A stretch of DNA of 64,000 nucleotides from an uncultured Actinomycetes bacterium (GTDB lineage: Bacteria > Chloroflexota > Dormibacteria > Dormibacterales > Dormibacteraceae). The stretch's first letter is position 1, and each line of letters opens with the position of its first letter. The position numbers and the translations under genes were made by a program. The DNA lies in the NCBI GenBank assembly GCA_964559855.1, contig CAZLJC010000002.1, positions 3,900 through 67,899 of the forward strand. Direction: 5' to 3'. This document shows, in pieces, positions 12,190 through 58,072 of this stretch. The notes beneath the pieces are model-generated. The model had not been told where the DNA came from. It searched no databases and saw nothing but the letters and a program-made list of their open reading frames with translations.

Positions 12190-12578
12190 CGAGCAGCCCG
12201 GCGCCCAGCAATTCCACGCGTTCTGCGCCAAACGAGCCAAATTGAGCGCGGATTGCGCGCCGATTGCGCCAAACGCGCCTAAATCGCCTGCAGATCGGGC
12301 GAGCAGCGCGGCGCCCAGCAATTCCACGCGTTCTGCGCCAAACGCGCCAAATTGCGCGCGGATTACACACGTTCTGCGCCAAACGCGCCTAAATCGCCTG
12401 CAGATCGGGCGAGCAGCGCGGCGCCCAGCAATTCCACGCGTTCTGCGCCAAACGCGCCAAATTGCGCGCGGATTACACGCGTTCTGCGCCAAACGAGCCA
12501 AATTGCGCGCGGATTGCGCGCGGATTGCGCCTAACGCGCCGAAATCGCCCTGCAGATCTGGAGCGAGCAGCCCCGCGG
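12190..12578 (+). repeat. Repeat locus A: ~3.3 tandem copies of a ~110-bp unit, each holding two core motifs TTCTGCGCCAAACG(A/C)GCC(A/T)AAAT
   Basis: Units start at about 12191, 12301 and 12411 (gagcagcgcggcgcccagcaattccacgcgttctgcgccaaacg…cctgcagatcgggc). Seven core copies, all on the + strand. The last unit abuts the sulfur-carrier stop codon. Confidence 0.9.
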
Positions 12579-12863
12579 CTAGCGGAGCGCGCCGCCGCCC
12601 GCGACCGCCGGCACGATCGAGATCTCGTCCCGGTCGTGGATCTCGGCGGCGAGCCCAGGCCCGAGCCGGACGTCCTCGTCGTTGAGATAGAGGTTCACGA
12701 ACTGGCGCAGGTCGCCGTTCTCGTCCAGCAGCCGGTCCTTGAAGCCCGGGTACTGCGCGTCCAGCGCAACGATCGCCCCCACGAGGTTCGACGCGTCCAC
12801 GTCGACGGTCGTCTTGCCCTCCGAGAGGCGGCGTAGCGGCCCTGGAATTCGAAAGTGTGCCAT
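12579..12863 (-). CDS. MoaD/ThiS-family ubiquitin-like sulfur-carrier protein with a 3-4 residue extension after the GG motif
   Basis: 94 aa: MAHFRIPGPLRRLSEGKTTVDVDASNLVGAIVALDAQYPGFK…EISIVPAVAGGGALR. It starts 5 nt after the ThrC-like stop. Confidence 0.75.
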   Translation of the reverse strand: MAHFRIPGPLRRLSEGKTTVDVDASNLVGAIVALDAQYPGFKDRLLDENGDLRQFVNLYLNDEDVRLGPGLAAEIHDRDEISIVPAVAGGGALR

Positions 12864-12868
12864 CTGGG

Positions 12869-14110
12869 TCAGATCTCCACCTGTTCTCGAAACGACTTTA
12901 GCGTGGGATCTATTTCGACGCGCCGCGAGGCGTGGCCGTTGGCCGAGGCGAGCACGTCCGCGGTCTTGAGCCCGTGCCCCGTGACGTAGGCGACGATCAC
13001 CTCGTCGCCCTTCCACCTTCCGGCGCGCGCGAGCTTGGCCAGCACGCCGATCGTGACCCCGCCCGCGGTCTCGGTGAAGATGCCCTCGGTCCGCGCCAGC
13101 AGGCGGATGGCGTCGACGATCTCCCCTTCGGTCACGGCCTCCACCACGCCGCCCGTCTCGCGCGCGATCCGGTTGACGTAGATCCCGTCGGACGGGTTCC
13201 CGATCGCGATCGACCGCGCGATCGTGTTCGGCTTCACCGGCATGATCCGCTCCGGCGCGTCGGAGTGGAAGGCGTTGTACACGGGCGCGCAGCCCAGCGC
13301 CTGCGCCCCGGTGAACGCGGGCACGCGGTCCTCGCGCACCAGGCCGTACTCCATCAGCTCGCGCACGGCCTGGCGGTGGCGCACGAACTGGCAGCCGCTG
13401 GCGATCGGGATCACGATCTCGTCCGGCAGCCTCCACCCGAGCTGCTCCGCGGTCTCGAACGTCAGCGTCTTCGAGCCCTCCGCGTAGAAGGGCCGGATGT
13501 TGATGTTGCAGAACGCCCAGGGCGTCGACTCGAGCAGCTGGCTGCACAGGCGGTTCACGTCGTCGTAGTTGCCGCGCACCGCGACGATGTTGGGGTCGAA
13601 CACGCCGATGCTCGCGACCTTCGCGGGCTCGAGGTCGACCGGGATGAACACGAAGCACTCCAGGCCCGCGCGCGCCGCATAGGCCGCCACCGCGTTCGCC
13701 AGGTTGCCCGTCGACGCGCACGCGATGGTCTCGAAGCCGTGCGCGCGCGCCCAGCTGATCGCGACCGACACGACGCGGTCCTTGAACGAGTTGGTCGGGT
13801 TCATGCTGTCGTTCTTCAGGTACAGGTTGCGCAGGCCGAGCTCGGCGCCCAGCCGGTCCGCCTTGACCAGCGGCGTGAATCCCTCGCCCAGCGTCACCAC
13901 GCTCACGCTGTCCTCGACCGGCAGCAGGTCGCGATAGCGCCACATCGACTTCGGCCCCTGCTCGATGCGCGAGCGGCTCACGATGTTCTTCAGCACGTTC
14001 GTGTCGTAGACCGCGTCAAGCGGCCCGAAGCACATCTCGCACACGTGCGTCGCCTGCAGCTCGTACTCCGTCCCGCATTCGCGGCAGCGCAGACCGACAA
14101 CCTTCGGCAC
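12869..14110 (-). CDS. threonine synthase-family PLP enzyme with an N-terminal CxxC…CxxC zinc-ribbon
   Basis: VPKVVGLRCRECGTEYELQATHVCEMCFGPLD, PLP lysine motif NPTNSFKDR, …ACASTGNLA…. The start is set at GTG 14110, because a longer ORF would overlap the divergent lipoprotein gene. Confidence 0.85.
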   Translation of the reverse strand: MPKVVGLRCRECGTEYELQATHVCEMCFGPLDAVYDTNVLKNIVSRSRIEQGPKSMWRYRDLLPVEDSVSVVTLGEGFTPLVKADRLGAELGLRNLYLKNDSMNPTNSFKDRVVSVAISWARAHGFETIACASTGNLANAVAAYAARAGLECFVFIPVDLEPAKVASIGVFDPNIVAVRGNYDDVNRLCSQLLESTPWAFCNINIRPFYAEGSKTLTFETAEQLGWRLPDEIVIPIASGCQFVRHRQAVRELMEYGLVREDRVPAFTGAQALGCAPVYNAFHSDAPERIMPVKPNTIARSIAIGNPSDGIYVNRIARETGGVVEAVTEGEIVDAIRLLARTEGIFTETAGGVTIGVLAKLARAGRWKGDEVIVAYVTGHGLKTADVLASANGHASRRVEIDPTLKSFREQVEI

Positions 14111-14156
14111 GCGGCTCAGTTTAGAGAGCGGTCGAACTTGCGTAGGCTCGTGTGAG

Positions 14157-15047
14157 ATGAGATGGTCGATCGCGCTCGCCTGCGCCCTGCTCGTCACGGC
14201 GTGCTCGTCGGGCGCGAAGCTGCACGCGGCCGCGCCCCTCAGCCCGTCGCCCGGGGGAGCGCAATCTCCCGTGGCGCAGAGCCCGAGCCCCTCGCCCGCA
14301 CCACCCGCGCACGTCTTCGTCATCGTGCTCGAGAACCGCAGCGCCGCCCAGGTCGCGGGCCAGGGTTACATCGCGCAGCTCGCGCAGCAGTACGGGGTCG
14401 CGTCGAACTACCACGGCGTCTCGCACCCCAGCCTCCCCAACTACCTGGCGCTGACCTCCGGCACCACGTGGGGCATCGCCGACGACGGATGGCACGCGCT
14501 GCCCGCGGGAGGACTCGGCGCGCAGCTCACGGCGGCCGGCATCGACTGGCGCGCCTACATGGAGGGCATGAGCCGCGGCTGCTTCAACAGCGGCTACCCC
14601 TACGCGCTGAAGCACAACCCGTTCGCGTACTACGGCGGAGCGTGCCCGCCGGAGGTGGTCCCGTTCAGCCGCTTTTCCGCCGATATGGCCGGCAGCGTGC
14701 CGCGGTTCGTGTGGATCACGCCCGACCTCTGCCACGACGGCCACGACTGCTCCAACGCCGCGGTCGACTCCTGGCTGGCGCAGACCGTCCCCACCATCAC
14801 CGGCTCCAGCGCGTGGCGCGATGGAGGCGTCCTGTTCATCACGTGGGACGAGGGAGAGGACAGCGCCAACTCCGTGCTCACGCTCGTGATCCAGTCCGGC
14901 ACGGCCGCGCATGCGAGCTCTGCGCCCTACAACCACTACTCCCTGCTCGCCACGATCGAGGACCGGCTCGGCGTCCCGCGGCTCGGCTACGCGGCGCAGG
15001 CGAGCCCTATGACCGACCTGCTTCCACCATCACCTTCGACCGGGTGA
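14157..15047 (+). CDS. phosphoesterase-family (acid phosphatase / phospholipase C-like) lipoprotein
   Basis: Signal peptide plus lipobox MRWSIALACALLVTAC. …VFVIVLENRS…HPSLPNYLALTSG…HNPF…ITPDLCHDGHD…. Confidence 0.75.
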   Translation: MRWSIALACALLVTACSSGAKLHAAAPLSPSPGGAQSPVAQSPSPSPAPPAHVFVIVLENRSAAQVAGQGYIAQLAQQYGVASNYHGVSHPSLPNYLALTSGTTWGIADDGWHALPAGGLGAQLTAAGIDWRAYMEGMSRGCFNSGYPYALKHNPFAYYGGACPPEVVPFSRFSADMAGSVPRFVWITPDLCHDGHDCSNAAVDSWLAQTVPTITGSSAWRDGGVLFITWDEGEDSANSVLTLVIQSGTAAHASSAPYNHYSLLATIEDRLGVPRLGYAAQASPMTDLLPPSPSTG

Positions 15048-16119
15048 TCGAGTCGAGGTACTCCAGGTCCACGGTCACGCCCAGCCCAGGGCCCTGCGGC
15101 ACGCGCAGCCGGCCGTCCTCCAGCACGAACGGCTCCGTGATATCGCGGTGGTAGTACCGGTCCGAGGCTGACGTGTCGCCCGGCAGCGTGAACCCGGCCA
15201 TCGCGGCCATCGCGACGTTCCCCGCGCGGCCGATGCCGGTCTCCAGCATCCCGCCCATCCACACCGGCACTCCGCGCTCGGCGCACAGGTCGTGGATCCT
15301 GCGCGCCTCCAGGTAGCCGCCCACGCGCCCGGGCTTGATGTTGATGATGCGGCACGCGCCCAGCTCGATCGCGTCGCGCGCGGTCTGCGCGGACGTGATC
15401 GACTCGTCGAGGCAGATCGGCGTGCGCACCACCTCGGCCAGCCGCGCGTGCGCGAGCACCTCCTCCTCCGGCAGCGGCTGCTCGATCAGCAGCAGGTCGA
15501 AGGGGTCGAGCAACGCAAGGTGCTCCGCGTCGGCCGGCGTGTACGCGGTGTTGGCGTCGACCTGAAGCGGCAGGTCGCCCACCATCTCGCGCACCGCGCG
15601 GACCGGCTCCAGGTCCCAGCCCGGCTTGATCTTCAGCTTGATCCGCCGGTAGCCCTGCTCCGCGTAGACCGCCACCGTGGCCAGCAGCTCGCCCACCGTG
15701 CGGTGGATGCCCACCGATACGCCGCAGTCGACCGCATCCCTGACGGCGCCGAGGTAGTGCGCGAAAGGCTCGCCCCGCGCGCGCAGCTGCGCGTCGAGCA
15801 GCGCCATCTCGAGCGCGGACTTCGCCATCTGGTGGCCGTGCACGGGCCGGAGCAGGCCGGCCACGTCCTCCGCGCTCAGCTCGCCCGCGGCGAACAGGCG
15901 CGGCAGAAGGTGCGAGGTGGTCACGTCCTGCGCGCCGTCCACATACTCCGCGGAATAGGTCGGCTCCTCGCCCGCCACGCACTCGCCCCAGCCCTCGCCC
16001 ACGTCGGTGACGGCGCGCACGAGCAGGATATCGCGCGCGTGCTGCACGCCGAACGACGTCTCGAACGGCGCGACGAGCGACAGCGCGATGCGGCGGAGCT
16101 CCACCGCGACTAGCCTCAT
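15007..16119 (-). CDS. enolase-superfamily MenC-type enzyme (o-succinylbenzoate synthase / N-acylamino acid racemase family)
   Basis: MRLVAVELRRIALSLVAPFETSFG…KLKIKPGWD…LQVDANTAY…LIEQPL…CLDES…NIKPGRVGG…. ATGA overlap with the Nudix gene. Confidence 0.8.
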   Translation of the reverse strand: MRLVAVELRRIALSLVAPFETSFGVQHARDILLVRAVTDVGEGWGECVAGEEPTYSAEYVDGAQDVTTSHLLPRLFAAGELSAEDVAGLLRPVHGHQMAKSALEMALLDAQLRARGEPFAHYLGAVRDAVDCGVSVGIHRTVGELLATVAVYAEQGYRRIKLKIKPGWDLEPVRAVREMVGDLPLQVDANTAYTPADAEHLALLDPFDLLLIEQPLPEEEVLAHARLAEVVRTPICLDESITSAQTARDAIELGACRIINIKPGRVGGYLEARRIHDLCAERGVPVWMGGMLETGIGRAGNVAMAAMAGFTLPGDTSASDRYYHRDITEPFVLEDGRLRVPQGPGLGVTVDLEYLDSITRSKVMVEAGRS

Positions 16120-16715
16120 GCCGGGCTCGTCGCCAGCGTGTCGTAGACGATCTGCGACCACGACTCCATCGCCAGGTAGAACATGCGCATCTCGTCGAGC
16201 GTGAGCAGCTCGCCCGCGAGCTTGTCCGTCTCGCGGATGCTGATGTTGGGCGAGTCGCCGTCGACCAGGAACACCACGCCGAGGTGCACCTTGGAAACGG
16301 GCGACGAGTCCTCGTTCAGCAGGCCCAGCAGCCGCGCCTCGAACGTCCCGTCGTACACGACCTCCTCCTCCCACTCGCGCTTCAGTCCGTCGAGGATCGG
16401 GTCGCCGCCCTCGAGGTCGCCGGGGTTGATGTGGCCGCCGACGCCCAGCGAGTACTGCTTGCGCAGCCGCTTCTCCGACGACGCGCGCAGGCGGTGGGTC
16501 AGGAAGTAGCGTCCGGCGTGGCGGAAGACCACGTACGGGATGATCTGCAGGAACGTCGGATCGTTCTCGACGTCGCCGCGCGGCTTGAAGCAGTGCCGGT
16601 CGCGGATCACGGCCTGGTGGCGTTCGAGGTTCCGGCTCACGAAGCCATGCCAGGCGCCGTCGGGGAACATGTCCTCGCGGCGCACGCACAGGACCTGCTC
16701 CGACGCGGCGCTCAT
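16116..16715 (-). CDS. Nudix-like hydrolase (MutT-family predicted phosphoesterase)
   Basis: 199 aa with a Nudix-box-like GVGGHINPGD…LKREWEEEV. ATGA overlaps at both ends. Confidence 0.6.
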   Translation of the reverse strand: MSAASEQVLCVRREDMFPDGAWHGFVSRNLERHQAVIRDRHCFKPRGDVENDPTFLQIIPYVVFRHAGRYFLTHRLRASSEKRLRKQYSLGVGGHINPGDLEGGDPILDGLKREWEEEVVYDGTFEARLLGLLNEDSSPVSKVHLGVVFLVDGDSPNISIRETDKLAGELLTLDEMRMFYLAMESWSQIVYDTLATSPA

Positions 16716-17317
16716 ACGTCGACCATCCGGATCAGCCCGCGCCCGAACACCGCGACCAGCTCGGCCGTGCGGTCGACGTCCTCCTCCAGCACCGGCAAAA
16801 AATAGATCCACGCGGCGTTCTCCGTGGCGGTCGTGATCATCGTGCGCGCCGAGTCCGACGTCGGGTTGCCGATCGGCCCTTGCCCGTCGGCCACGCAGAT
16901 CCTGCCCGCGACGTTCACCTCCTCCTTGCCGATGCCGCGGTACGACTCGCCCTCGCGCCCCAGGCGGATCACCAGCTCCTCGCCCTTGACCCGGCCCAGG
17001 TCGTACAGGCCCACCGGAACCTGCAGCTGGACCGACATCGCGTTGGCGACGTCGACGAGCGAGTTGATCCGCGGCAGCGGCTCGCCCTTCTTCATCCGCC
17101 GCAGCAGCGCCTCGGACGACGGCCGCACGCGCGTCGGGTCGACGCCGAACTTGCGGTAGAGCCGGCGCGCCGGCTCGAGCGACCCGACCTCGCCGGACCG
17201 CACCGCCTGCTCGGCCCGCTTGACCTCGAGCTCGAAGTCGTCGCGCGGCGGCGTCACCTCCAGCTCGTAGAGCTCGAACACCACCGGCTCCACGTCGGCC
17301 TCCAGCCTGACCTTCAC
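16712..17317 (-). CDS. stand-alone B3/B4 tRNA-binding domain protein (PheRS beta-subunit editing-domain-like)
   Basis: 201 aa: …RINSLVDVANAMSVQLQVPVGLYDL…GIGKEEVNVAGRICVADGQGPIGNPTSDSARTMI…. GTGA overlap with the aroA stop. Confidence 0.6.
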   Translation of the reverse strand: MKVRLEADVEPVVFELYELEVTPPRDDFELEVKRAEQAVRSGEVGSLEPARRLYRKFGVDPTRVRPSSEALLRRMKKGEPLPRINSLVDVANAMSVQLQVPVGLYDLGRVKGEELVIRLGREGESYRGIGKEEVNVAGRICVADGQGPIGNPTSDSARTMITTATENAAWIYFLPVLEEDVDRTAELVAVFGRGLIRMVDV

Positions 17318-18570
17318 GCCAGGTACTCGAGGTGGTCGAAGAACATCGGGTACGAGATCTCGACGCACTCCGCGCCCTCGATCTCGGTGCGGCCGTCCGC
17401 CACCAGCGCGGCGACCGCCAGCGCCATTGCCACACGATGGTCTCCGCGCGAGTCGACGCGCGCGCCCTCGAGCTCGCGCGGGCCGTTGATCACCCAACCA
17501 TCGTCCTCGACCGCGATGTCCGCGCCCATGGCGCTCAGGCCCTCCTCCATCGCGGCCAGCCGGTCCGACTCCTTGACCCGCAGCTCTTTCGCCCCCCGGA
17601 TCACGCTCGTCCCGGCGGCCTGCGTCGCGGCCACCGCCAGCACCGGCAGCTCGTCGATGAGCTCCGCCGCCGCGCCGCCCTCGACGTGAATCGGGCGCAG
17701 GTCCCGCGCGGGCCGCACCTCCAGGTCCGCCACCGCCTCGCCGCCCTCGAACCGCGGGTTGCGGCGCCGGACCTCGAAGCCGGCGGTGGCCAGGAGATCG
17801 GCGAGCGCGGTGCGGGTGGGATTGACGCCCACCCCGAGCAGGCGGACGTCGGAGGCGTCGACCAGCCCGGCCGCGACCAGCCAGAACGCGGCGGCGCTGA
17901 AGTCGCCCGGGACGGTGAGGTCGAGCGGCTCGAGCCGGGCGGTTCGGCCCACCTCGACGCGCGTGCCCTCCACCTTCACGTCCGCCCCCATCGCGGCCAG
18001 CATCACCTCGGTGTGGTCGCGCGTGCGCACCGCCTCGGTGACCGCGGTCCTCCCCTCGGCGTAGAGCCCGGCGAGCAGAAGCGCCGACTTCACCTGCGCG
18101 CTGGGGACCGGCGGCCGGAAGTCGATGCCGCTCAGGCCGGCGCCGCCGCCCACGCGCAGCGGCGGCCACGAGGCGCGCGCTCCCATCTCGCGCAGCGGGT
18201 CCACCACGCGGTCCATCGGCCGGCGGGAGAGCGACTCGTCCCCGACCAGCTCGGCCTCGAACGGCTGCCCCGCCAGCAGGCCCGCCAGCAGGCGCATGGT
18301 CGTGCCCGAGTTGCCGCAGTCCAGGGGAGCGGGCGCGGGCCGCAGGCCGTCCATCCCGACCCCGGCCACACGCGCCTCCTCCACCTCCACGCCGAGCGCT
18401 CGCAGGCACCCGGCCGTCGACGCCACGTCCGCGCCCGTGGACAGCCCGCCGACGCGACTCGTGCCGGATGCGACGGCGCCCAGGATCAGCGCCCGGTGCG
18501 AGATCGACTTGTCGCCGGGCACGCGCAGCTCGCCCTCGAGCCGGCGCGACGGCCTCACCGTCGCGATCAC
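17314..18570 (-). CDS. aroA: 3-phosphoshikimate 1-carboxyvinyltransferase (EPSP synthase)
   Basis: …LRVPGDKSISHRALILGA…LDCGNSGTTMRLLAG…KESDRLAAM…DHRVAMA…. GTG 18570 overlaps the tyrA stop. Confidence 0.92.
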   Translation of the reverse strand: MIATVRPSRRLEGELRVPGDKSISHRALILGAVASGTSRVGGLSTGADVASTAGCLRALGVEVEEARVAGVGMDGLRPAPAPLDCGNSGTTMRLLAGLLAGQPFEAELVGDESLSRRPMDRVVDPLREMGARASWPPLRVGGGAGLSGIDFRPPVPSAQVKSALLLAGLYAEGRTAVTEAVRTRDHTEVMLAAMGADVKVEGTRVEVGRTARLEPLDLTVPGDFSAAAFWLVAAGLVDASDVRLLGVGVNPTRTALADLLATAGFEVRRRNPRFEGGEAVADLEVRPARDLRPIHVEGGAAAELIDELPVLAVAATQAAGTSVIRGAKELRVKESDRLAAMEEGLSAMGADIAVEDDGWVINGPRELEGARVDSRGDHRVAMALAVAALVADGRTEIEGAECVEISYPMFFDHLEYLA

Positions 18571-19388
18571 CGGTGCTCCCGGCTCCAGCGCTCGCGCACC
18601 AGCCGCGCCTCCTCGAACAGCTCGACCATTCGCGGGTCGTCCGCCTCCAGGTGGCGGCGCAGCCGGGCGATCTCGTGCTCCACGGCGCCCAGCAGCTCGA
18701 GCAGGTTCTCGCGATTGGTCTTCGCCACCCAGGCATACATGTCCGGGTCGCCCGCGGCGAGCCGCGTCATGTCGCGGAAACCGCCCGCCGCCAGGCCCGA
18801 CGCCTGCGGCCAGTCCGCGCGGCGGGCCAGCGCCAGCGTGTACGCCACCGAGAGCAGGAAGGCGGTGTGGCTCACCCCCGCCACCAGCCGGTCGTGCGTG
18901 ATCGCGTCCATCTGCACGGGGCGCGCGCCCACCTCGCGCACGAGGGCCACGACCTGCGGGTCCTCCCGGGTCAGGATCCACGGCGCCCCCTCGAACATGG
19001 CCGGGTCCGCCGCGTCGATGCCGGACTGCTCTCTGCCGCACATCGGGTGGCCGCCCACCAGGTCGATGCCCTCGGCCGCAGCCCACTCCATGACGGACGA
19101 CTTGGTGCTGGCCATGTCGGTCACCGGGCGGCCCTGCGCCACGATGGCGAGCCGGGGGAACAGCGCACGCATCGCGCCGAGCGGGGCGGCGACCACGGTC
19201 ACGTCCGCCAGCGCGGCGGCGCTGACGTCGGTGTTCGCCGTCTCCACGATGCCCCGGTCGAGCGCCTTGCGCACCACGAGCGGGTCGATGTCACCGCCCA
19301 CCACCGTCACGTGGGGCCGCGCCTGCTTCAGGGCGAGTGCGAAGGACGCGCCCATGAGCCCGAGGCCCACCACCGCGACAGTCGGCAT
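18567..19388 (-). CDS. tyrA: prephenate dehydrogenase
   Basis: MPTVAVVGLGLMGASFALALK…DMASTKSSV…VGGHPMCGRE…HDRLVAGVSH…. Confidence 0.88.
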   Translation of the reverse strand: MPTVAVVGLGLMGASFALALKQARPHVTVVGGDIDPLVVRKALDRGIVETANTDVSAAALADVTVVAAPLGAMRALFPRLAIVAQGRPVTDMASTKSSVMEWAAAEGIDLVGGHPMCGREQSGIDAADPAMFEGAPWILTREDPQVVALVREVGARPVQMDAITHDRLVAGVSHTAFLLSVAYTLALARRADWPQASGLAAGGFRDMTRLAAGDPDMYAWVAKTNRENLLELLGAVEHEIARLRRHLEADDPRMVELFEEARLVRERWSREHR

Positions 19389-19396
19389 CGACGGCG

Positions 19397-20413: not shown

Positions 20414-20811
20414 GATTGGCCTCCCGCTGTGGTCCGCATCTGCTCCAGGTCCGCCTTGATCGCCTGCGCCCCGCGAAGATACGCGAACCTCATCGCCGCC
20501 TGCGGGCGAGGCGTGTTGTAGAGCAGCAGCACGCGGATGCACATCGACACGCCGCGCGGGTTCGGCTGCATCACCTGGAGGTCGTGGCCGCACATCATCG
20601 GCATGTCGAGCCAGCCCAGGCGGCGCACCGCGTGCGCCGGGAACTCGGCGTTCAGGTCGGGCGTGGTGGTGAAGAACAGCGCCCCCACCTCCTGCGGGTC
20701 CAGGTCGTTGAGCGCGCTCAGCTCCTGCAGGAGCTCGACGGTCGCCTCCGTGATGGCCTCGGGCGTGTTGGCCGCGGCGGTGGTGGCGCCGCGGATCCCT
20801 CTCACCGGCAC
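20410..20811 (-). CDS. aroH: chorismate mutase, AroH type
   Basis: MPVRGIRGATT…, 133 aa, characteristic AroH N-terminus and size. Confidence 0.85.
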   Translation of the reverse strand: MPVRGIRGATTAAANTPEAITEATVELLQELSALNDLDPQEVGALFFTTTPDLNAEFPAHAVRRLGWLDMPMMCGHDLQVMQPNPRGVSMCIRVLLLYNTPRPQAAMRFAYLRGAQAIKADLEQMRTTAGGQS

Positions 20812-21596: not shown

Positions 21597-22768
<1,172 letters not shown>

Positions 22769-22772
<4 letters not shown>

Positions 22773-27850: not shown

Positions 27851-28171
27851 ATGAAGAGACCGCTGCTGCTTGTCACCGGAGCCGCCGTCGCGGGCCTGCT
27901 GATCGCGGGGATCGGCGCATCGGCCCACACGCTAGTGCCCGCCGGGTTCCGGGGAACCCATGCCTCAGCCTCGAACGACGAGGCCAGCGGGGCCCGTACG
28001 GAGAGCCCGGAGGCCGCCGAGTCGCCCGAGCCCTCGCCGAGCCCGGAGCCGGCCGAATCGCCTGAGCCCTCTCCCTCGCCTGAGACGGAGCAGCCGGAAC
28101 CACCCGACATGGAGACCGCCGACACGAACGATGAGGACGGCGGCGGGGACACCGGAGGGTCTGGGGACTAG
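27851..28171 (+). CDS. small exported/membrane-anchored low-complexity protein (Pro/Glu/Ser-rich, acidic Gly-rich tail)
   Basis: MKRPLLLVTGAAVAGLLIAGIGASA, then ESPEPSPSPEPA/ESPEPSPSPETE, then …DEDGGGDTGGSGD. Confidence 0.5.
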   Translation: MKRPLLLVTGAAVAGLLIAGIGASAHTLVPAGFRGTHASASNDEASGARTESPEAAESPEPSPSPEPAESPEPSPSPETEQPEPPDMETADTNDEDGGGDTGGSGD

Positions 28172-28179
28172 CCTGAACA

Positions 28180-28501
28180 GCGCGAATTCCGCGCCTTTTG
28201 GGCCAAACGAGCCAAATCCCGCGCGAATTGCACGCCTTCTGCGCCAAACGAGCCAATCTGGCTCGGATAGCGCGCAACTCGAAAATTGCACGCCTTTTGC
28301 GCCAGGCGAGCGTGATGCCGTGCGAATCGCGCGCAACTCGAAATTGCACGCCTTTTGCGCCAAACGAGCCAATCTGGCTCGGATAGCGCGCAACTCGAAA
28401 ATTGCACGCCTTTTGCGCCAAACGAGCCAAATCCCGCGCGAATTGCACGCCTTCTGCGCCAAACGAGCCAATCCCCTGCGGACCTTGTGAGCCGTTCAGC
28501 C
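28180..28501 (+). repeat. Repeat locus B: six units of the 41-58 bp repeat family plus a terminal module (…CCTGCGGACCTTGTGAGCCGTTCAGCC)
   Basis: Core TT(C/T)TG(C/G)GCCAAACGAGCCAA at ~28196, 28236, 28294 (degenerate), 28352, 28410 and 28450. Units 2 and 4 carry the hairpin CGAGCCA-atc-TGGCTCG. Confidence 0.9.
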
Positions 28502-28539
28502 TCTTCCGGGGCCCGGGGCGAGGCAGGCGTTTACCTCGT

Positions 28540-28839
28540 ATGGGCAAATTCACCAACCTGGTGCTGGTCGCGGCCGCGGCGGCCCTGATCGTGATCGGGG
28601 TCGCGGCTCAGATCGGCACCCTCAAGCTCGGCAGCCCGGGCCACCCCGCCCGGCCGGCCGGCGGCGCCGTCGCGGGGCAGCACGCGGTCGCCACCCCGTC
28701 GATCCCGGCCTCCCCCACCCAGCCGGCCTACATCGTCACGCCCTCACCCACCCCTGACACGGCCACCTGGCAGCCGCCCCCCGGCGGCGGCGGAGGCGGC
28801 GGGAACGGCGGCGGCGGAGGCGGAGGCGACGGGGACTAG
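28540..28839 (+). CDS. small membrane-anchored Pro-rich protein with a poly-Gly/Asp tail (architectural paralogue of 27851..28171)
   Basis: MGKFTNLVLVAAAAALIVIGVAAQ…PSPTPDTATWQPPPGGGGGGGNGGGGGGGDGD. Confidence 0.5.
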   Translation: MGKFTNLVLVAAAAALIVIGVAAQIGTLKLGSPGHPARPAGGAVAGQHAVATPSIPASPTQPAYIVTPSPTPDTATWQPPPGGGGGGGNGGGGGGGDGD

Positions 28840-31346: not shown

Positions 31347-31347
<1 letters not shown>

Positions 31348-33254
31348 CAGCCGCCCGACGCGACCGGGATCTTCTCGATCCGGATCGCGGTCGCCTTGAA
31401 CTCCGCGGTGCCGGACTTCGGGTCCCACGCGTCGACGGTGAGGATGTTGGTCGAGGCCTGGTCGGGGAAGTGCAGCGTCATGAACGCGAGCCCGGGGCGC
31501 AGCGAGGGCTCGACGCCGATTGCGACCTCGATCGCTCCGCGCCGGGAGCTGGCGCGCACGGATTCGCCTTCGGCGACGCCCAGCGCGGCCGCGTCCTCCG
31601 GCGAGATGAGCAGCGCCTCGCCGCGGCGCAGCGGCGAGGTGTACTCGCCCGTCTGCACGCCGGTGTTGAACGAGTCGAGCCTCCGGCCGGTGGTGAGCCG
31701 GATGGGAAACTCGTCGCTCAGCGCATCGACCGGAGGGTCGTGGTCGACGGCGTGGAACGGCGCGCGAGGCCCCTCGACGGGCTCCTGCCACAGCCGCGCA
31801 TGGAGAAACTGCGTACCCGGGTGGGAGGTGTCTGGGCACGGCCACTGGATGCCGCCGAGCTCGTCCAGCCGCGCGTACGACATCCCGGCGTGCATCGGCG
31901 ACAGCGCGCGCAGCTCGTCCCACACCTGCTCGGCGGTGGGCTCGCCCCATTCGCAGCCGAGACGCCTGGCCAGCTCGCAGATGATCGCGATATCGTCGCG
32001 CGCACCATCCGGTGGATCGAGCGCCCGGCGCACGCGCTGCACGCGGCGCTCGCTGTTCGTCACCGTGCCCTCCGACTCCGCCCAGCCCGCGGCCGCCGGC
32101 AGCACCACGTGCGCAAGCTCGGCGGTCTGCGTCAGCAGGATCTCCTGGACCACGAGGTGCTCGAGCCCTCCGAGCAGGCGCACCGCGCGCGCCTGGTCGG
32201 CCTCGCTTCGCGCGGGGTTCTCCCCGATCACGTAGGCGGCGGTGAGACGCCCGTGCTCCATCGCCTCGAACATCTCGCTCAGGTGAAGGCCCTTCTCGGC
32301 CGGAAAGTGCGCGCCGCCCCACGCGCGCTCGAACTTCGCGTGCACCTCGGGGTCCTCGAGGTCCTGGAACCCGGGCAGCCGCGCCGGGATCGCCCCCATG
32401 TCACCGCCGCCCTGCACGTTGTTCTGGCCGCGCAGCGGGTTCAGCCCGCAGCCGTAGCGCCCGACCTTGCCCGTGAGCAATCCCAAGTTGATCAGCGCGA
32501 CCACGTTGTCGGTGGCGTTGTGGTGCTCGGTGATGCCGAGCGTCCAGCAGATCATCCCGGTGCGGGCCCGAGCGTAGTCGAGCGCCACCTCCTCGATCGC
32601 CGCGGCGGGAACTCCCGTCGCCTGCTCGGCGAACTCCAGCGTGTAGGACTCGACCTTGCGCGCGAAGGCGTCGTAGCCGGAGGTCGAGTTGGCGACGAAG
32701 CGCTGGTCGGCCAGGCCGGCGTGGATGATCACACGCGCCATCGCGTTGGCCAGGGCGATATCGCTGCCGACGTCGATGCCCAGCCACATATCGGCCCACT
32801 GCGCCGAGGTCGTCCGGCGGGGGTCGACGGCGTAGAGCCGCGCTCCGTTGCGCACCCCGCGGAGCAGGTGATGGAAGAAGATCGGATGGGTCTCGCGCGC
32901 GTTGGAGCCCCACAGGATGATCACCTCGGTGTCCTCGACCTCGCGATAGGACGACGTCCCGCCCCCCGCCCCGAACACCGTCGCCAGACCGGCGACGCTG
33001 GGGGCGTGTCAAGTCCGGTTGCAGCTGTCGACGTTGTTGCTCTGCATCACGGCGCGCGCGAACTTCTGCGCCATGTAGTTCATCTCGTTGGTCTGCTTGG
33101 AGCAGCTGAACAGGCCGAAGGCCTCAGGCCCGCGCGCTCGCGCGGCCTCGAAGCCGGCCGCCGCGCGTCGCAGCGCCTCCTCCCAGGTCGCGGGGCGAAG
33201 GCGGCCGCCCTCTCTGACCAGCGGCTCGGTCAGACGGCGCAGGCCGTCACCCAT
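31347..33254 (-). CDS. fdhA: formate dehydrogenase catalytic (molybdopterin) subunit with in-frame UGA read as selenocysteine; lacks its own N-terminal Fe-S domains
   Basis: ORFs 33009..33254 and 31347..32978 are in the same frame (1908 nt = 636 codons), separated only by TGA 33009-33011. The context is …NNVDSCNRT-U-HAPSVAGLATVFGAGGG…, matching the Sec/Cys-His active site. …LRGQNNVQGG… lies downstream. Confidence 0.85.
32979..32997 (-). promoter_or_regulatory. putative bacterial SECIS hairpin (CGUCGCC-GGUCU-GGCGACG) downstream of the in-frame UGA
   Basis: A perfect 7-bp stem starts 12 nt after the UGA. The loop GGU starts at nt 22 counted from the U of UGA, the same spacing and GGUC loop as I recall for the E. 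coli fdhF SECIS. Confidence 0.7.
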
Positions 33255-33280
33255 GGCTCAAGGATATCCCTCGCTCCGCG

Positions 33281-35246: not shown

Positions 35247-35276
35247 GCCCTCATTGTCCCCTCAACCCGAACCGAC

Positions 35277-35390
35277 CGAATTCGGCGCCTTTGGCGCCAA
35301 GGGCGCGCTTGGCCGCGCGAATTCGGCGCCTTTGGCGCCAAGGGCGCGCTTGGCCGGCGCGAAACCCGCGCGCGCAGCACGCCCGCGCGC
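35277..35390 (+). repeat. Repeat locus C: two perfect 41-bp tandem units of a divergent, strongly palindromic variant of the repeat family
   Basis: cgaattcggcgcctttggcgccaagggcgcgcttggccgcg occurs twice (35277-35317, 35318-35358). It contains GGCGCC-ttt-GGCGCC and GCCAAG-ggcgcg-CTTGGC. Confidence 0.85.
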
Positions 35391-46930: not shown

Positions 46931-46933
46931 CCC

Positions 46934-48841: not shown

Positions 48842-48869
48842 GGCGCGCCGCCGTGAGCCTCCAGGCCCG

Positions 48870-50606: not shown

Positions 50607-50631
50607 ACCGGACCACCCAGCACCCGCACCC

Positions 50632-50651
50632 CCGCCCGGTCTCCCGGGTGG
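50632..50651 (+). terminator. possible stem-loop terminator after the antiporter gene (CCGCCCGG-tctc-CCGGGTGG)
   Basis: 8-bp stem with one G-U pair, 26 nt after the stop, followed by ctggatttc. There is no strong U-tract. Confidence 0.3.
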
Positions 50652-50653
50652 CT

Positions 50654-50757
50654 GGATTTCGCGCGTTTTGCGCCAAACGAGCCAAATCCCGCGCGAATTG
50701 TGCGCGTTTTGCGCCAAGCGAGCAAAAAAAGCGGTCAGATTCTGTGAGCCTTTCGGC
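50654..50757 (+). repeat. Repeat locus D: two repeat units plus a terminal module (…CAGATTCTGTGAGCCTTTCGGCC) abutting the response-regulator stop codon
   Basis: gatttcgcgcgttttgcgccaaacgagccaaatcccgcgc / gaattgtgcgcgttttgcgccaagcgagcaaaaaaagcgg / tcagattctgtgagcctttcggcc. Confidence 0.88.
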
Positions 50758-52913: not shown

Positions 52914-53962
52914 CTCGACTCCGGCGGGGCCACCCATCGCACCGCCGTGCCATGCGCCCCGCTCGTCCCGAGCAGCTCGCCGTCGAGCCGGATCTCCCAT
53001 GTCTCCTCGCCCGGCTCCATCGCCAGGTGGTGAACGGGTGACGAGCCCGGGTCCGCCTCGCGGGCCGCCGCCAGCGCCGCCGCGATCCGCTCCCTCGACG
53101 CCTGGTCGACGTACTGCAGGAAGACCGAGTGATACACCACGGTGGTCACGCCCGGACACGGCCGCGCCAGCTCTCGCTCCAGGAATTCCGCGGCCCCGAT
53201 CCGCTCCACGTGCCCCGGCTCGGCGCGCGCGATCTCGATCGCGCCGTCCAGCTGCGCCAGCCGGCCCAGCTGGTCCGGCCACACGAACGAGCGCAGCGTC
53301 AGGGCGCCCTCCTCGGTGGTGGGATCGATGGGGTTGAGGTCGCATCCCCTGCGCTCCACGACCGTCGCCGGCCGGTTCAGGGGCGGCGGCACTTCGAACG
53401 CGTGCCTGAACCGCACGGGGGAGGCCGCGTCCCCCCATGCCCCGCGCGGCGACTCGTAGCGGAAGCGGTCCCACAGCAGGTTGAGCCCGGCGCTGGCCCC
53501 GAGCTCCAGGATGCGCAGCTCGCGCCGCGTCCGGTGCGCCGCCTCGAGGAAGCCGCCGAGCAGCGCCGCGCTCCGGCCGACCTCGTTGGTCTGGCATCCC
53601 CGGCGCACGATCGTCCGCAGCTCCGCCGCCCGCTCGACCAGGGCATTGCGGAACGCCGGCCACGCCGCCTCGGCGTCGCCGTCACCGCCGGTCGAGGGGT
53701 AGCGCGCCGCCAGCTCGGGGAGCGATTCGTCGAGCACCAGGCGGTGCACCGCGCCCATGAACCGCAGCGCGAGCGCCGTGCTGCCCGGCTCGTCCCGGAA
53801 CTCCCCGAGCACGCCCACCGCCGCGCCGCCGGACTCGAGGTCGTCCGCCGCCCGCTCCAGCAGCGCGCTGTAGAAGGGCGAGCCCAGCTGGTGGCACCAC
53901 GCCGCCTGGCGGCGCAGACGCCGGACGGTCGGGTCGGTCAGGGCCTCAGGCTGCTCCGGCAA
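52910..53962 (-). CDS. DUF2332-like protein (uncharacterised; methyltransferase-like fold suspected)
   Basis: 350 aa: …GSPFYSALLERAADD…LRFMGAVHRLVL…ILELGASAGLNL…. The family call is from memory of the pattern only. Confidence 0.5.
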   Translation of the reverse strand: MPEQPEALTDPTVRRLRRQAAWCHQLGSPFYSALLERAADDLESGGAAVGVLGEFRDEPGSTALALRFMGAVHRLVLDESLPELAARYPSTGGDGDAEAAWPAFRNALVERAAELRTIVRRGCQTNEVGRSAALLGGFLEAAHRTRRELRILELGASAGLNLLWDRFRYESPRGAWGDAASPVRFRHAFEVPPPLNRPATVVERRGCDLNPIDPTTEEGALTLRSFVWPDQLGRLAQLDGAIEIARAEPGHVERIGAAEFLERELARPCPGVTTVVYHSVFLQYVDQASRERIAAALAAAREADPGSSPVHHLAMEPGEETWEIRLDGELLGTSGAHGTAVRWVAPPESR

Positions 53963-54905
53963 GCTCGAGCTCCCTGGCGCGGTTGGCGTATCCGGGATGC
54001 GAGGGATGGGCGACGCGGTACCAGGCCAGCGTCTCGGCCAGCGCGTCCTCCATCGCCGACGGCTCGAAGCCGAGCTCCCGCCGCGCGCGGTCGATCACGA
54101 TCCCGGCCGGCCGCCGCGGATCGGGCCCGTACGGGCTCGCGTCCGCCGGCAGCTCGGCGAACGGGACCGGGTGCAGCCTGGCCGGCCTGCCCAGCGCCCG
54201 CGCGATCCCCTCGATCAGCGCGCGCAGCGTCAGGTCCTCGAAGCCGGCGTTGTAAGCGCGGTGGGCCGCCGGCTTGCGCGGGTCGCAGGCGAGGGCGCAC
54301 GCGTAGCCGGCGTCCTTCACCCACGCCAGGCCGGGCGATCGCTCGTACGTCTCGTGCGGAACCAGCAGCGGCCCGCCGTCCGCCACGCGCTCGATGTACG
54401 CCACGATGCGCATGCTGTGGTCGCCCGGCCCGAACACCGCCGGCGGTCGCACGACGGTCCAGGGGAGGTCCGCATGGCGCGCCAGCACCGTCTCGCACCA
54501 GCGCTTGCCCTCGACGTAGTCCAGCTCGCCGGCGGGCACGTCTCCCTCCAGCGGGATGAAGTCCTCCTCGCGCGCTGGCCTGCCCGCGAGGTCGGGCGCG
54601 ACGTCCGGATACACGCGCCGCGTCGACAGGAAGACGTAGCGCTCGCCCTTGAAGTGACGGGCGACGGCCTGCACCTCGGCCGGCTGGAACGCGGCGAGGT
54701 CGAGCACCACGTCGGGCTCGGTCCGCTCCAGCGCGCGCTTCAGCTCCGCCTCGTCCATCCGGTCGAAGGCGAGATAGCTGGTGAAGGTGCCGTAAGGCCT
54801 CTCCTTGCGGCCCGCCGCGATCGTCTCCACGCCGCGGCGCATCAGCTCCTTGCAGGCGGCCGCTCCGATGAATCCCGCGCCACCCAGGACCAGGGCCCTC
54901 GTCAT
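53946..54905 (-). CDS. NAD-dependent epimerase/dehydratase family protein
   Basis: MTRALVLGGAGFIGAAACKEL…; 319 aa. Confidence 0.82.
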   Translation of the reverse strand: MTRALVLGGAGFIGAAACKELMRRGVETIAAGRKERPYGTFTSYLAFDRMDEAELKRALERTEPDVVLDLAAFQPAEVQAVARHFKGERYVFLSTRRVYPDVAPDLAGRPAREEDFIPLEGDVPAGELDYVEGKRWCETVLARHADLPWTVVRPPAVFGPGDHSMRIVAYIERVADGGPLLVPHETYERSPGLAWVKDAGYACALACDPRKPAAHRAYNAGFEDLTLRALIEGIARALGRPARLHPVPFAELPADASPYGPDPRRPAGIVIDRARRELGFEPSAMEDALAETLAWYRVAHPSHPGYANRARELELAGAA

Positions 54906-54910
54906 CGCGT

Positions 54911-55588
54911 CTACTCGATATCGCGGGTCACGAAGTCCACGTCGAATCCGTCCCGCTCGTCGAGCCGCCGCGCCAGCTCGGACGCGAGCACCACCGATCG
55001 GTGACGGCCTCCGGTGCACCCGAACGCCACGACGATGTGCATCCGGCCCTTCTCCTGGTAGAGGGGTACGAGCTCCGTGACCATGCGCTCCATATCGTCG
55101 AGCAGGCGCCGCGCCGCGGGCTGCTTGAGCACGAAGTCCGCGACGTCCGGATCGCGCCCGGTGAGGTCGCGCAGCTCCGGCACCCAGTACGGGTTGTCGA
55201 GGAACCTGGCGTCGATCAGCAGCGCCGCCTCGGACGGCGCGCCGTTCTTGTACGCGAAGGCGAGGCAGGTCACGAGCGGGCGATCGCGACCCCGGAGGTG
55301 CCGCGCCAGCTCCTCGCGCTGCGGGGCGTCGATCCGGTGGTGCGCCCGCTCGTAGGTGCCGCCGGGCGCGCCGTCGTCGGCTCCGTCGTGGACGAGCACG
55401 TACTTGATGCCGCGCCGGTCGGCCTCGCGCAGCAGCTCGGCCGCCCCGCCGCCGGCCAGGGGCAGCACCAGGTCGCTGTCGCCCAGGCCGCCGAGCTCCG
55501 CGATGCGCTGGAAGCCCTCCGACTCGAACGCGGCCGCCGCCTCCGCCGCGCGCTCCGCCGACGCGGCGCCGACGATCACCAGGTTCAA
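54911..55588 (-). CDS. rapZ: RapZ-like protein with a shortened N-terminal domain and a degenerate Walker A
   Basis: The C-terminal domain is conserved (…DARFLDNPYW…VAFGCTGGRHRSV…). The N-terminus reads VIVGAASAERAAEA where RapZ has G.SGSGKS. Confidence 0.75.
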   Translation of the reverse strand: MNLVIVGAASAERAAEAAAAFESEGFQRIAELGGLGDSDLVLPLAGGGAAELLREADRRGIKYVLVHDGADDGAPGGTYERAHHRIDAPQREELARHLRGRDRPLVTCLAFAYKNGAPSEAALLIDARFLDNPYWVPELRDLTGRDPDVADFVLKQPAARRLLDDMERMVTELVPLYQEKGRMHIVVAFGCTGGRHRSVVLASELARRLDERDGFDVDFVTRDIE

Positions 55589-57435
55589 AGCGTCTCTTTC
55601 AACCGGACGGCGAGCCGCTCCGGGATACCCAGCTTCACGATCTCCTCCACCGGCGCCTCGCGAATCGCCTGCACCGAGCCGAAGTGTCGCAGCAGCGCGC
55701 GCTTGCGCGCCGGTCCGATGCCCTCGACCGAGTCGAGCGGCGACGTCAACGCCTTGCGCGACCGCACCTTGCGGTGGTGCGTGATGGCGAAGCGGTGCGC
55801 CTCGTCGCGAATGCGCTGCACGAGGAACAGGCCCGGCGAGTTGCGCTCCTGCACGATCGGCTCTGCCCGGCCCGGCGCGAAGATCTCCTCCCGCTCCTTG
55901 GCCAGGGCGAAGGTCGGGATGTCGGCGTAGCCGGCCGACTCCACCACCTCGAGCGCGGCGCTCAGCTGCCCCTTGCCGCCGTCGATCAGGATCAGGTCCG
56001 GCCGGCTGGTGAACGAGCGGTCGCCCACGGCCTCCGACTCCTCGCGGCGCTGGGCGGACTCGAGCCGCTCGAGGCGGCGGCTCAGCACCTCCTGCAGCAT
56101 CGCGAAGTCATTCGGCCCCGGCACGTACCGGATCCGGAAGTGGCGGTAGTGATCGGTGCGGGGGCGCCCGTCCTCGAACACCACCATCGCTCCGACGGCG
56201 GAGTCGCCCTGGATGTTCGAGATGTCGTAGCACTCGATCCGCCGGGGCGGAGTCTCCAGGTCGAGCGCCTCGGCCAGGGCGGCCAGCATCGGCTCCGTGC
56301 GGCTGCGGTCGTAGTCCGCCTGGATGCGGAGCTGCTCGAGCTCCTGGGCGGCCGTCTCGGCGAGCTGCGTCACCAGGCCGCGCTTGCGCCCTCGCCGCGG
56401 CACCTCGATGGTCACGGGGCCGCCGCGCCTCTCGCTCAGCCAGCCCGCCATCAGGTCGGGCTCGTCCACCGCGCCGGGCACGACCACCGACCGCGGGACG
56501 TGGGTCGCGCTCGAGTAGTACTGCGCCAGGAAGCCACGCAGCAGCTCGGCCTCGGTCGCGTCGCTCGCGCCGTCCAGCGCGTGGCCGTCGTGCCCCACCA
56601 TCTTGCCCTGGCGCACGTAGGCCACCTCGACGTACACGTCGCCGGCGCTGCGGGCGTACGCGATGATGTCCTGGTCGTCGCGGCCTCGGGTCAGCACCTT
56701 CTGGCGGTCGGCGATGCGCTCGATCGACTGCAGCTGATCGCGGTAGCGGGCGGCGTTCTCGAAGTCGAGCCGGTCCGCAGCGGAGTCCATGCGATTGCGC
56801 AGCTCGCGGCCGAGCAGGTCGGAGCGGCCCTCCATGAACAGCGCGACCTCGTTGATCCGAGCCCGGTAGTCCTCAGGGCTGATCCGCGCCTCGCACGGCC
56901 CGGGGCAGCGGCGGATGTGAAAGTCGAGGCACACCTTGTGCTGGCGGAAGATCTCGTCCGAGCAGGTCCGGAACGGCAGCAGCTGCCGGATCGATTTCAC
57001 GGTCGAGCGCAGCGACTGCGCCGAGGTGTACGGCCCGAAGTAGAGGGCGCCGTCCTTCAGCACCCGGCGCGAGTAGTGCACGCGCGGGAACTCCTCCGTC
57101 ACCGGCAGCTTCAGGTAGAGGTAGTTCTTGTCGTCCTTCAGCCGGATGTTGAAGCGCGGCCGGTAGTTCTTGATCAGGTTGTTCTCGAGGACCAGCGCCT
57201 CGACCTCGTTGGCCGTGGTCACGAACTCGAAGTCCACCGCCCGCTGCATGAGCTCGGCGATCCGGCCCGCCTCGGCGTACCCGGGCGTGAAGTAGGAGCG
57301 CAGGCGGTCGCGCAGGCGCAGGGCCTTGCCGACGTAGATCACCTGCATCTTCCGGTCCCGGAACAGGTAGACGCCCGGCGTGTCGGGCACGGCCTGCAGC
57401 CGCCGCCTGACCGTCTCTTCCAGAGTCGCCGCCAT
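55585..57435 (-). CDS. uvrC: excinuclease ABC subunit C
   Basis: From MAATLEETV (ATG 57435): GIY-YIG …PGVYLFRD…VIYVGKA…; C-terminal HhH …GIGPARKRALL…. Confidence 0.93.
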   Translation of the reverse strand: MAATLEETVRRRLQAVPDTPGVYLFRDRKMQVIYVGKALRLRDRLRSYFTPGYAEAGRIAELMQRAVDFEFVTTANEVEALVLENNLIKNYRPRFNIRLKDDKNYLYLKLPVTEEFPRVHYSRRVLKDGALYFGPYTSAQSLRSTVKSIRQLLPFRTCSDEIFRQHKVCLDFHIRRCPGPCEARISPEDYRARINEVALFMEGRSDLLGRELRNRMDSAADRLDFENAARYRDQLQSIERIADRQKVLTRGRDDQDIIAYARSAGDVYVEVAYVRQGKMVGHDGHALDGASDATEAELLRGFLAQYYSSATHVPRSVVVPGAVDEPDLMAGWLSERRGGPVTIEVPRRGRKRGLVTQLAETAAQELEQLRIQADYDRSRTEPMLAALAEALDLETPPRRIECYDISNIQGDSAVGAMVVFEDGRPRTDHYRHFRIRYVPGPNDFAMLQEVLSRRLERLESAQRREESEAVGDRSFTSRPDLILIDGGKGQLSAALEVVESAGYADIPTFALAKEREEIFAPGRAEPIVQERNSPGLFLVQRIRDEAHRFAITHHRKVRSRKALTSPLDSVEGIGPARKRALLRHFGSVQAIREAPVEEIVKLGIPERLAVRLKETL

Positions 57436-57472
57436 TCCATCGCGATTGTAGGAACCGCTTAAACTCTCGCCC

Positions 57473-57937
57473 GTGAGCTCAACCCCAGGCCAGGTTCCGC
57501 CGCCGCCTCCTCCGGTCCCGGAGCCGGCTTCGCCGACTCGGATCGCCGGCCAGGAATCGGCGCCCGCGACGGCGGTGCCGCACACGCCGGGCCTCATGTC
57601 TCCCTCCCCTTCGGGGACGCAGACCAACAGCCTCGCCATCGTGAGCATCGTGGCGGCGTTCGGCTCGTTCTTCGCCCACATCATCCCGGGGCTCGGAGGC
57701 GCGACGGTGGCCGTGATCGCCATCGTCACCGGCTTCATGGCCCGGAATCAGATCAGGCAGACCGGGGAGCAGGGCATGGCGCTGGCGACCATCGGCATCG
57801 TGGTCGGCATCATCCACCTCGTCCTGATACTCGTCCTGGTGCTGGTCGTGCTCTTCGTGATCTTCGTGCTCGGGGTCGCGCTCTTCGGCATCGCGGCCCA
57901 CGGAGGCTCCGCCCCGTCCCCCGTGCCGAGCGGCTAG
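57473..57937 (+). CDS. DUF4190-like membrane protein with a Pro-rich N-terminus
   Basis: …NSLAIVSIVAAFGSFF…AVIAIVTGFMARNQI…; GTG start. Confidence 0.6.
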   Translation: MSSTPGQVPPPPPPVPEPASPTRIAGQESAPATAVPHTPGLMSPSPSGTQTNSLAIVSIVAAFGSFFAHIIPGLGGATVAVIAIVTGFMARNQIRQTGEQGMALATIGIVVGIIHLVLILVLVLVVLFVIFVLGVALFGIAAHGGSAPSPVPSG

Positions 57938-57954
57938 GCGAGCGCCTCACCGCC

Positions 57955-58072
57955 AGATCCGCGCCAATTCCGCGCGTTCTGCGCCAAACGAGCCAAATCC
58001 CGCGCGAATTGCGCGCGTTGTGCGCCAAACGCGCCGAAACCGCCCACGGATCCTGAGAGCCGTTACGGGCCG
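57955..58072 (+). repeat. Repeat locus E: two repeat units plus a terminal module (…CACGGATCCTGAGAGCCGTTACGGGCC) overlapping the MFS stop codon
   Basis: caattccgcgcgttctgcgccaaacgagccaaatcccgcgc / gaattgcgcgcgttgtgcgccaaacgcgccgaaaccgccc / acggatcctgagagccgttacgggcc. Confidence 0.88.

Follow-up and report, generated by a model that had tools for sequence, protein, structure and literature searches.

The 64,000-nucleotide stretch of bacterial DNA analysed here (contig CAZLJC010000002.1 of assembly GCA_964559855.1, positions 3,900 to 67,899; hereafter the window) carries, at five loci, clusters of short GC-rich intergenic repeats. They belong to a family that is widespread in and characteristic of Candidatus Dormibacterota, an abundant uncultured soil phylum. 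Work on small interspersed repeats has centred on Proteobacteria, Firmicutes, mycobacteria and cyanobacteria, and the present family appears to be previously undescribed and the first for this phylum. We consider it probable that these repeats are mobile or once-mobile non-coding elements, comparable to REPs, BOX elements or miniature inverted-repeat transposable elements (MITEs), which were later expanded by local tandem duplication. We favour this origin because the copies are strictly intergenic, enriched between convergent genes, free of covariation and bound by no orientation rule, and because near-identical copies are dispersed, occupancy among relatives is patchy and one lineage shows a burst of its own.

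Repeat units in the window and the wider family

An nhmmer profile made from the units finds 17 strong 41-bp units in the window, all on the + strand and at four loci (E 1e-6 to 1e-14; Table 1). The 11-mer core TGCGCCAAACG has 16 matches at up to one mismatch, every one on the + strand, against 1.7 expected, and a 25-mer core has eight at up to three mismatches against none expected. A preliminary description of this DNA, made from the sequence alone, had reported a dispersed intergenic family of about 19 copies at five loci. The family is genuine, and 17 strong units at four of the loci stand; the remaining pair, at locus C, is divergent and near-palindromic. The five clusters hold 2, 2, 2, 6 and 7 units, which are contiguous with periods of 41 and 58 bp and have none of the unique spacers of a CRISPR array. 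As first described, the units are modular and contain no credible open reading frame (ORF), and a shared terminal module, GATYCTGWGAGCCKTT, closes loci B (two mismatches), D and E (none in either).

Around these loci the window is unremarkable chromosomal DNA. Its GC content is 71.4%, it contains no tRNA genes, and its recognisable genes are ordinary ones (uvrA, uvrC, glycolysis, formate dehydrogenase). About 83% of the genes lie on the - strand according to gene calls from GC3 and Pfam, in keeping with the earlier figure of more than 80%, and the GC skew of the + strand is negative throughout. Loci A, B, D and E start 1-48 nt past the stop codon of a + strand gene and A, D and E occupy convergent-gene junctions, both as previously stated.

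Metagenome contigs were scanned for two GCGCCAAACG cores lying 40-42 bp apart, which yielded at least 120 loci. About 85 of the 120 loci listed match the unit profile (GC 0.63-0.70), essentially all of them as dimers, so that the family comprises at least 85 loci; 69 non-redundant dimers were used for the analysis of context. The same scan also caught unrelated tandem arrays of lower GC that contain GCGCCAAACG (L037, L038, L044, L070, L052, L031, L047 and L121; metagenome and genome loci are designated by L numbers throughout), for example ~21-nt repeats of GCGCCAAACGGGTCCCACAC and a 42/84-nt array in L052. The pattern had no match in viral contigs, and carriage by viruses was rejected.

The basic element of the family is a direct dimer of ~34-bp units, ~80-95 bp long in all. 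The period is 42 bp in 60 of the 69 dimers and 41 bp in the other nine, in a scan that admitted 40-42 bp only. Its consensus unit, nnATTnCGCnCnTTTGGCGCCAAACGTGCGGAAT, is palindromic over ~32 nt and centred on TTGGCGCCAA (ATTCCGCAC-TTTGGCGCCAAACG-TGCGGAAT), with the core CGCAC-TTTGGCGCCAAACG-TGCG; the claim that the repeats lack terminal inverted repeats is not confirmed at the family level, the consensus unit being itself a palindrome. The two units of a dimer are nevertheless direct repeats of one another: GATTCCGCAC...CGCGCTT occurs twice, AATTGC...AAATCCCGCGCG occurs twice, and the 5' GATTC and the 3' flank keep the same order.

Compared position by position, the window unit agrees with the family consensus at 27 of 34 positions and therefore represents a derived subfamily. 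It is strongly asymmetric although the consensus is palindromic, and the main hairpin left in it is the unit junction CGCGCG-AATTG-CGCGCG. A search for an exact 19-mer in one genome of each GTDB species found true copies only in a single metagenome-assembled genome (MAG; loci L005, L008 and L013) and at L012, whose contig belongs to the same study and is probably mis-binned. Each of the four is a dimer of two units between unrelated flanks; the terminal module is weak or absent in three (L005, L013 and L012) and recognisable in L008. The window lineage and one related MAG thus carry a derived subfamily with 41-bp units in which hairpin symmetry is mostly lost. Ten independent copies from the window and the MAG align with 33 consecutive invariant or near-invariant positions, TGCGCCAAACGAGCCAAATCCCGCGCGAATTGC, and a variable 5' arm, and the dimer is the state of all six copies of the subfamily that lie outside arrays.

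The host assignment rests on protein comparisons. The UvrC protein of the window is 88-92% identical to many proteins from 'Candidatus Dormibacteraeota' MAGs, and its SBP protein gives the same answer; a protein flanking a typical metagenome copy (L116) is from Dormibacterota, and four further loci (L030, L097, L108 and L113) share synteny with the window, their proteins having 73-88% amino-acid identity. An actinobacterial origin had been suggested by the 71% GC and by the MAG title 'uncultured Actinomycetes', and was rejected since the protein searches point to Dormibacterota. This MAG (CAZXGB01, 'uncultured Actinomycetes bacterium'), which contains L005, L008 and L013, is the only species-representative genome with the exact subfamily of the window; its proteins are unnamed, and its loci share no genes with the Dormibacterota loci examined. 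L012 lies on a 3.7-kb contig in an 'uncultured Steroidobacteraceae' (gammaproteobacterial) bin of the same study, SRP272529. The label or bin of CAZXGB01, of L012 or of both is probably wrong.

The preliminary description could place the repeat in no known family, and this holds. With the window and 10 related loci as queries, the only Rfam 15 matches at gathering threshold were to RNase P and tRNAs lying elsewhere, and locus A had none at E<=1; literature searches by sequence string and by keyword found no earlier description.

Genomic context, structure and orientation

None of the 69 dimers lies inside a called gene. Their flanking genes are convergent in 18 cases, co-directional with the element in sense in 14, co-directional with the element in antisense in 12, and divergent in eight. 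Convergent junctions account for 18 of 50 element-bearing gaps and for 31 of 304 element-free gaps on the same contigs, a ~5-fold difference (Fisher P=1.3e-5) that bears out the proposed tie to gene 3' ends and convergent junctions. The median convergent gap is -4 nt without an element and 102 nt with one. Because element-free convergent genes typically overlap by 4 nt, the element, where present, is essentially the whole spacer. Elements usually start within ~15 nt of a stop codon.

Such positions would suit a functional 3'-end RNA element, the stem-loops of which either terminate transcription (in either direction at convergent junctions) or, in the manner of E. coli REPs, shield upstream mRNA from degradation by 3' exonucleases. 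The generic dimer does fold well beyond shuffled sequences on both strands (z -4.2 and -3.7), one relative has a canonical hairpin and T-run at site B where the window has its array, and each of the five window loci would lie in sense behind a stop codon if locus C is taken as a - strand element. For the window variant, on the other hand, folding on the + strand does not surpass that of shuffles (z -1.1 and -0.8), and folding on the - strand does so only slightly. A scan for terminators found no hairpin with a T-run at any locus, hence no intrinsic terminator, and no promoter consensus was found at the loci either. The lower stem seemed by eye to covary, with variants such as CACCC...GGGTG, and RNA structure under selection was considered on this account; explicit counts showed no covariation (score 0.108, against 0.129 in column shuffles), and pairing was below shuffle expectation (65.6% of cells against 68.2%). 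Individual copies are therefore not kept as structures. The near-equal numbers of sense and antisense copies, the eight of 50 between divergent genes and the poor conservation of sites among relatives also speak against an RNA function, and a terminator is seemingly not required where element-free convergent pairs overlap their stop codons. We regard this explanation, and with it the 3'-untranslated-region or terminator role first suggested, as doubtful.

Orientation had been the most striking claim of the preliminary description, in which every copy lay on the + strand and strict polarity implied a strand-specific role. Locus C departs from this pattern. The profile matches it best on the - strand (E 0.004; the + strand gives 0.01-0.045), and its conserved 3' half resembles the window unit at ~74% of positions on the - strand and ~57% on the + in a position-by-position comparison. 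The same SBP-SDR spacer in L030 contains a window-type element (…GCGCCAAACGCACCAAATCCGGCG…) that is sense to the genes, which corresponds to the - strand of the window. On the strength of the better profile match and of the element at the same site in L030, locus C is probably better read on the - strand, its orientation being ambiguous. Across 57 related dimers on other Dormibacterota contigs, orientation divides 28:28 relative to the GC skew of the locus and 30:27 relative to the local gene-strand majority, and L008, which is of the window's own subfamily, is antisense to the two co-directional genes on either side of it. Together with the 14:12 ratio given above, these counts do not support strict polarity or a strand-specific role derived from it.

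A further explanation is a polar motif of replication or segregation, of the KOPS or Chi kind, or else transposition of single strands into the template of the lagging strand, which would fix the orientation of the copies. Four window loci do lie on the + strand, which the negative GC skew and the 83% gene bias suggest to be the lagging strand, and copies on the same contig share their orientation in L088, L125, L034 and the MAG contig. Set against the even division among the 57 dimers, the probable opposite reading of locus C and the modest improbability of four independent loci out of four falling on one strand (P=0.125), a polar motif is very unlikely, and the family does not attest a novel strand-specific signal in genomes. 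The preliminary description had held that random orientation without association with gene ends, or a match to a known REP/MITE-type family, would refute it: orientation is random at the family level and the behaviour is REP/MITE-like, while the association with gene ends is real.

Occupancy among relatives and probable origin

About 110 kb from six relatives contain no copy, including 43 kb of GCA_037025585.1 that are colinear with positions 27-64 kb of the window and thus with loci B-E. In L139 and L140 the stop codons of the two genes that flank site D share 4 nt (CTAA), whereas a further 148 nt separate these stops in the window. Site C is filled in L030; L142 has just 11 nt there, and L144 and L147 have no element. 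At site B, in the spacer between the genes for two small Gly/Pro-rich, membrane-anchored proteins, L142 (18400-18490) has an intrinsic terminator, GGAAAGGGCCGAG-CGAT-CTCGGCCCTTTCC followed by GCTTTCT, whereas the window (28172-28540) is without that hairpin and has the six-unit array instead. Conversely, three pairs of elements (L116/L125, L049/L099 and L061/L135) are 90-97% identical over their full length, spacer included, amid unrelated flanks, which points to recent copying.

The repeat is also present in an independent ENA contig and in a MAG. Logan contigs that encode the identical NIL protein end inside array A (samples SRR12266074 and SRR12266077, perhaps also of study SRP272529); the repeat is therefore real in independent data and breaks assemblies. 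L148, an ENA short-read contig that starts at the array edge, has four units at locus B instead of six, either because the array truly varies in length or because it collapsed in assembly. Searches for proteins identical to the response regulator and to ThiS, aimed at polymorphism of the variable-number tandem repeat (VNTR) type, found nothing. Breakage of short-read assemblies at these repeats (array A, and perhaps collapse at array B) matters for the contiguity and binning of MAGs. The family is a lineage marker, and possibly a marker for binning and a VNTR-type marker of strains.

Under the mobile-repeat interpretation, copies move or formerly moved to new sites, and those at convergent junctions would be retained because insertion there is least harmful. 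Arrays A and B probably grew by slippage or unequal recombination of 110-, 58- and 41-bp segments, as boxB and MIRU arrays do. The invariant asymmetric core is a predicted recognition site for a protein that binds the element or makes copies of it; an influence on the 3' ends of transcripts, if any, would be a by-product and not the reason for its existence, and the shared strand of four window loci would be a small-sample coincidence or the result of local spread, not a functional polarity.

Several observations weigh against such an origin. No mobilising gene came to light: tblastn with IS608 TnpA and E. coli RAYT, a weak test, gave nothing better than E=0.7 in 0.93 Mb. Young copies showed neither a consistent target-site duplication nor sharp element ends. 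Copies that lie on one contig tend to point the same way (window A, B, D and E; L008 with L013; and the copies within L088, L125 and L034), which is unexpected under pure random insertion. Finally, 33 invariant or near-invariant nucleotides and a fixed spacing of 41-42 bp could reflect a selected host function.

Another explanation is a protein-binding DNA array, in which each palindromic unit is the site of a dimeric protein and the four-turn spacing (41-42 bp) allows co-operative binding, for instance by a nucleoid-associated or chromosome-organising factor. A palindrome without compensatory covariation is what operator-like sites are expected to show; 10 copies of two genomes keep the 33-nt block nearly invariant next to a variable 5' arm, unit centres are tightly spaced, and the dimer is the basic state of all six non-array copies of the window subfamily. 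The spacing statistic is in part an effect of ascertainment, however, given the limits of the scan, and orthologous positions are not conserved. The preference for convergent junctions looks like tolerance and not targeting, there is no candidate protein, and the same features are compatible with a core that is bound by a transposase. A binding array as such is in our view unlikely.

A partner of the RAYT or IS200 type was considered but found no support: the weak tblastn search of 0.93 Mb gave no match, and in L088 the gene between two dimers is for a DUF559 protein and not for a transposase. These two dimers (357-435 and 1360-1438) are 90% identical, have the same orientation and surround that single gene, which is DUF559/REase_MTES_1575-like and ~320 amino acids long. 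The pair and the gene may have moved as one composite unit, or their arrangement may be a coincidence. With somewhat slender odds, the TGCGCCAAACGAGCCAAAT... core, the obligatory direct dimer with its four-helical-turn spacing and the shared orientation of neighbours may together betray a Dormibacterota-specific mobile system served by a non-RAYT, non-IS200 enzyme, or domesticated sites of a chromosome-organising protein. In both cases repeat and protein would form a new partnership, in a phylum without a cultured representative, and the conserved asymmetric core offers a concrete bait for finding the protein that recognises it.

Among known systems the closest parallels are the REP/BIME and REPIN-RAYT repeats of Proteobacteria, for which mobile-repeat arguments of the same kind have been used (PMC3116915, PMC3337134). 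Shared features are short GC-rich units, palindromic in their consensus, that are strictly extragenic and multi-copy, an arrangement in doublets and sometimes longer clusters, a preference for gene 3' ends, lineage-specific subfamilies and patchy presence between relatives. In contrast to a REPIN, which consists of two inverted REPs, the dimer here is made of direct repeats; a conserved 5' tetranucleotide of the GTAG type is lacking, palindromy is largely lost in the window subfamily, no RAYT gene was found in the weak tblastn search, and the host phylum is Dormibacterota. MITEs differ from the family in that its outer arms are complementary only in some subfamilies and consistent target-site duplications are lacking.

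Pneumococcal BOX, RUP and SPRITE repeats are over-represented between convergent genes, which has been read as evidence of parasitic mobile elements, and BOX elements, boxA-boxB(n)-boxC, carry variable tandem arrays of boxB (PMC3049150). The present family partly resembles BOX in its modular build, with variable numbers of tandem internal units (~45 bp in BOX) between terminal modules, and in its bias towards convergent genes; like SPRITE it lies close to the 3' ends of coding sequences, and its arrays are expected to differ in length. In sequence it is unrelated to both. BOX has terminal inverted repeats resembling those of insertion sequences (IS) and SPRITE a long U-rich tract, whereas the present elements have weakly conserved head and tail modules and no known IS partner, and the wider family has almost always exactly two units.

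The mycobacterial interspersed repetitive units (MIRU/VNTR loci) consist of 40-100-bp tandem units at dispersed intergenic positions in a high-GC genome, in one orientation relative to neighbouring genes. MIRUs are mostly found inside operons, contain small ORFs that overlap the flanking stop and start codons, and are not palindromic. Tandem units of this size, dispersed intergenic loci, a high-GC genome and a common orientation towards the neighbouring genes recur in the window, but no such ORF logic is seen here, and the basic state of the wider family is a fixed dimer and not a variable array.

The five loci and their neighbours

Table 1. Repeat loci of the window, their component units (nhmmer), tandem periods (Tandem Repeats Finder, TRF) and flanking genes (Pfam). 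Positions are those of the window.
Feature	Position	Strand	Composition	Flanking genes
Locus A	12190-12578	+	Three tandem 110-bp composites, one extra 41-bp unit in the third; 7 units (12209-12551); each composite: head CGAGCAGCSCGGCGCCCAGC, unit 1, unit 2, tail CTGCAGATCKGG; TRF period 110 (x2.9, 94% matches) and period 41 (x2.8)	NIL-domain gene (+, stop 12189) / ThiS gene (-, stop 12579); whole spacer filled
Locus A units	12209-12250, 12247-12290, 12319-12360, 12357-12400, 12429-12470, 12467-12511, 12508-12551	+		
Locus B	28172-28500	+	6 units (28181-28477; 28281-28311 degenerate); TRF period 58/116	Co-directional small + genes 27854-28171 and 28540-28839
Locus B 41-bp units	28181-28226, 28397-28441, 28437-28477	+		
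Locus B 58-bp variants	starting 28222, 28281 (degenerate), 28342	+	Extra hairpin GAGCCAATCTGGCTC	
Locus B terminal module	28481-28496			
Locus C	35275-35363	- (ambiguous)	Two 41-bp near-palindromic units GGCGCCTTTGGCGCCAAGGGCGC; TRF period 41	SBP_bac_5 gene (-, stop 35402) / SDR gene (-, start 35246)
Locus D	50651-50757	+	2 units (50654-50733)	Na+/H+ exchanger gene (+, stop 50606) / OmpR-type response regulator gene (-, stop 50758)
Locus D units	50654-50696, 50692-50733	+	Dimer	
Locus D terminal module	50738-50753			
GC-rich hairpin preceding locus D	50633-50652			
Locus E	57955-58072	+	2 units (57962-58044); TRF period 41	DUF4190 protein gene (+, stop 57937) / MFS gene (-)
Locus E units	57962-58007, 58003-58044	+	Dimer	
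Locus E terminal module	58049-58064		Overlaps MFS stop codon 58063-58065	

Array A lies exactly at the junction of a rearrangement, at window 11398-12189, that involves the NIL-domain gene. In the syntenic L108 (9115-9354) and L113 this gene is on the same strand as a thrC-like gene and adjoins it, with a presumed thiS gene in between by analogy with the window; in the window it is inverted and accompanied by an extra gene for 176 amino acids without a Pfam match (11398-11928). L108 and L113 carry a family dimer upstream of thrC instead.

The two small genes beside locus B encode proteins with an N-terminal hydrophobic helix and low-complexity tails rich in Pro/Ser/Glu or in Gly. Neither has a Pfam match, and their adjacency is kept in relatives (L142, 18078-18888).

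Apart from the repeats, the gene for the formate dehydrogenase alpha subunit has an in-frame TGA at 33009-33011 (-) within the motif SCNRT*HAPSVAGL, the classic position of selenocysteine. Gene callers split it into pieces of 81-83 and ~544 amino acids (ORFs 33012-33257 and 31347-33008 in the window), and do the same in L142 and L145.

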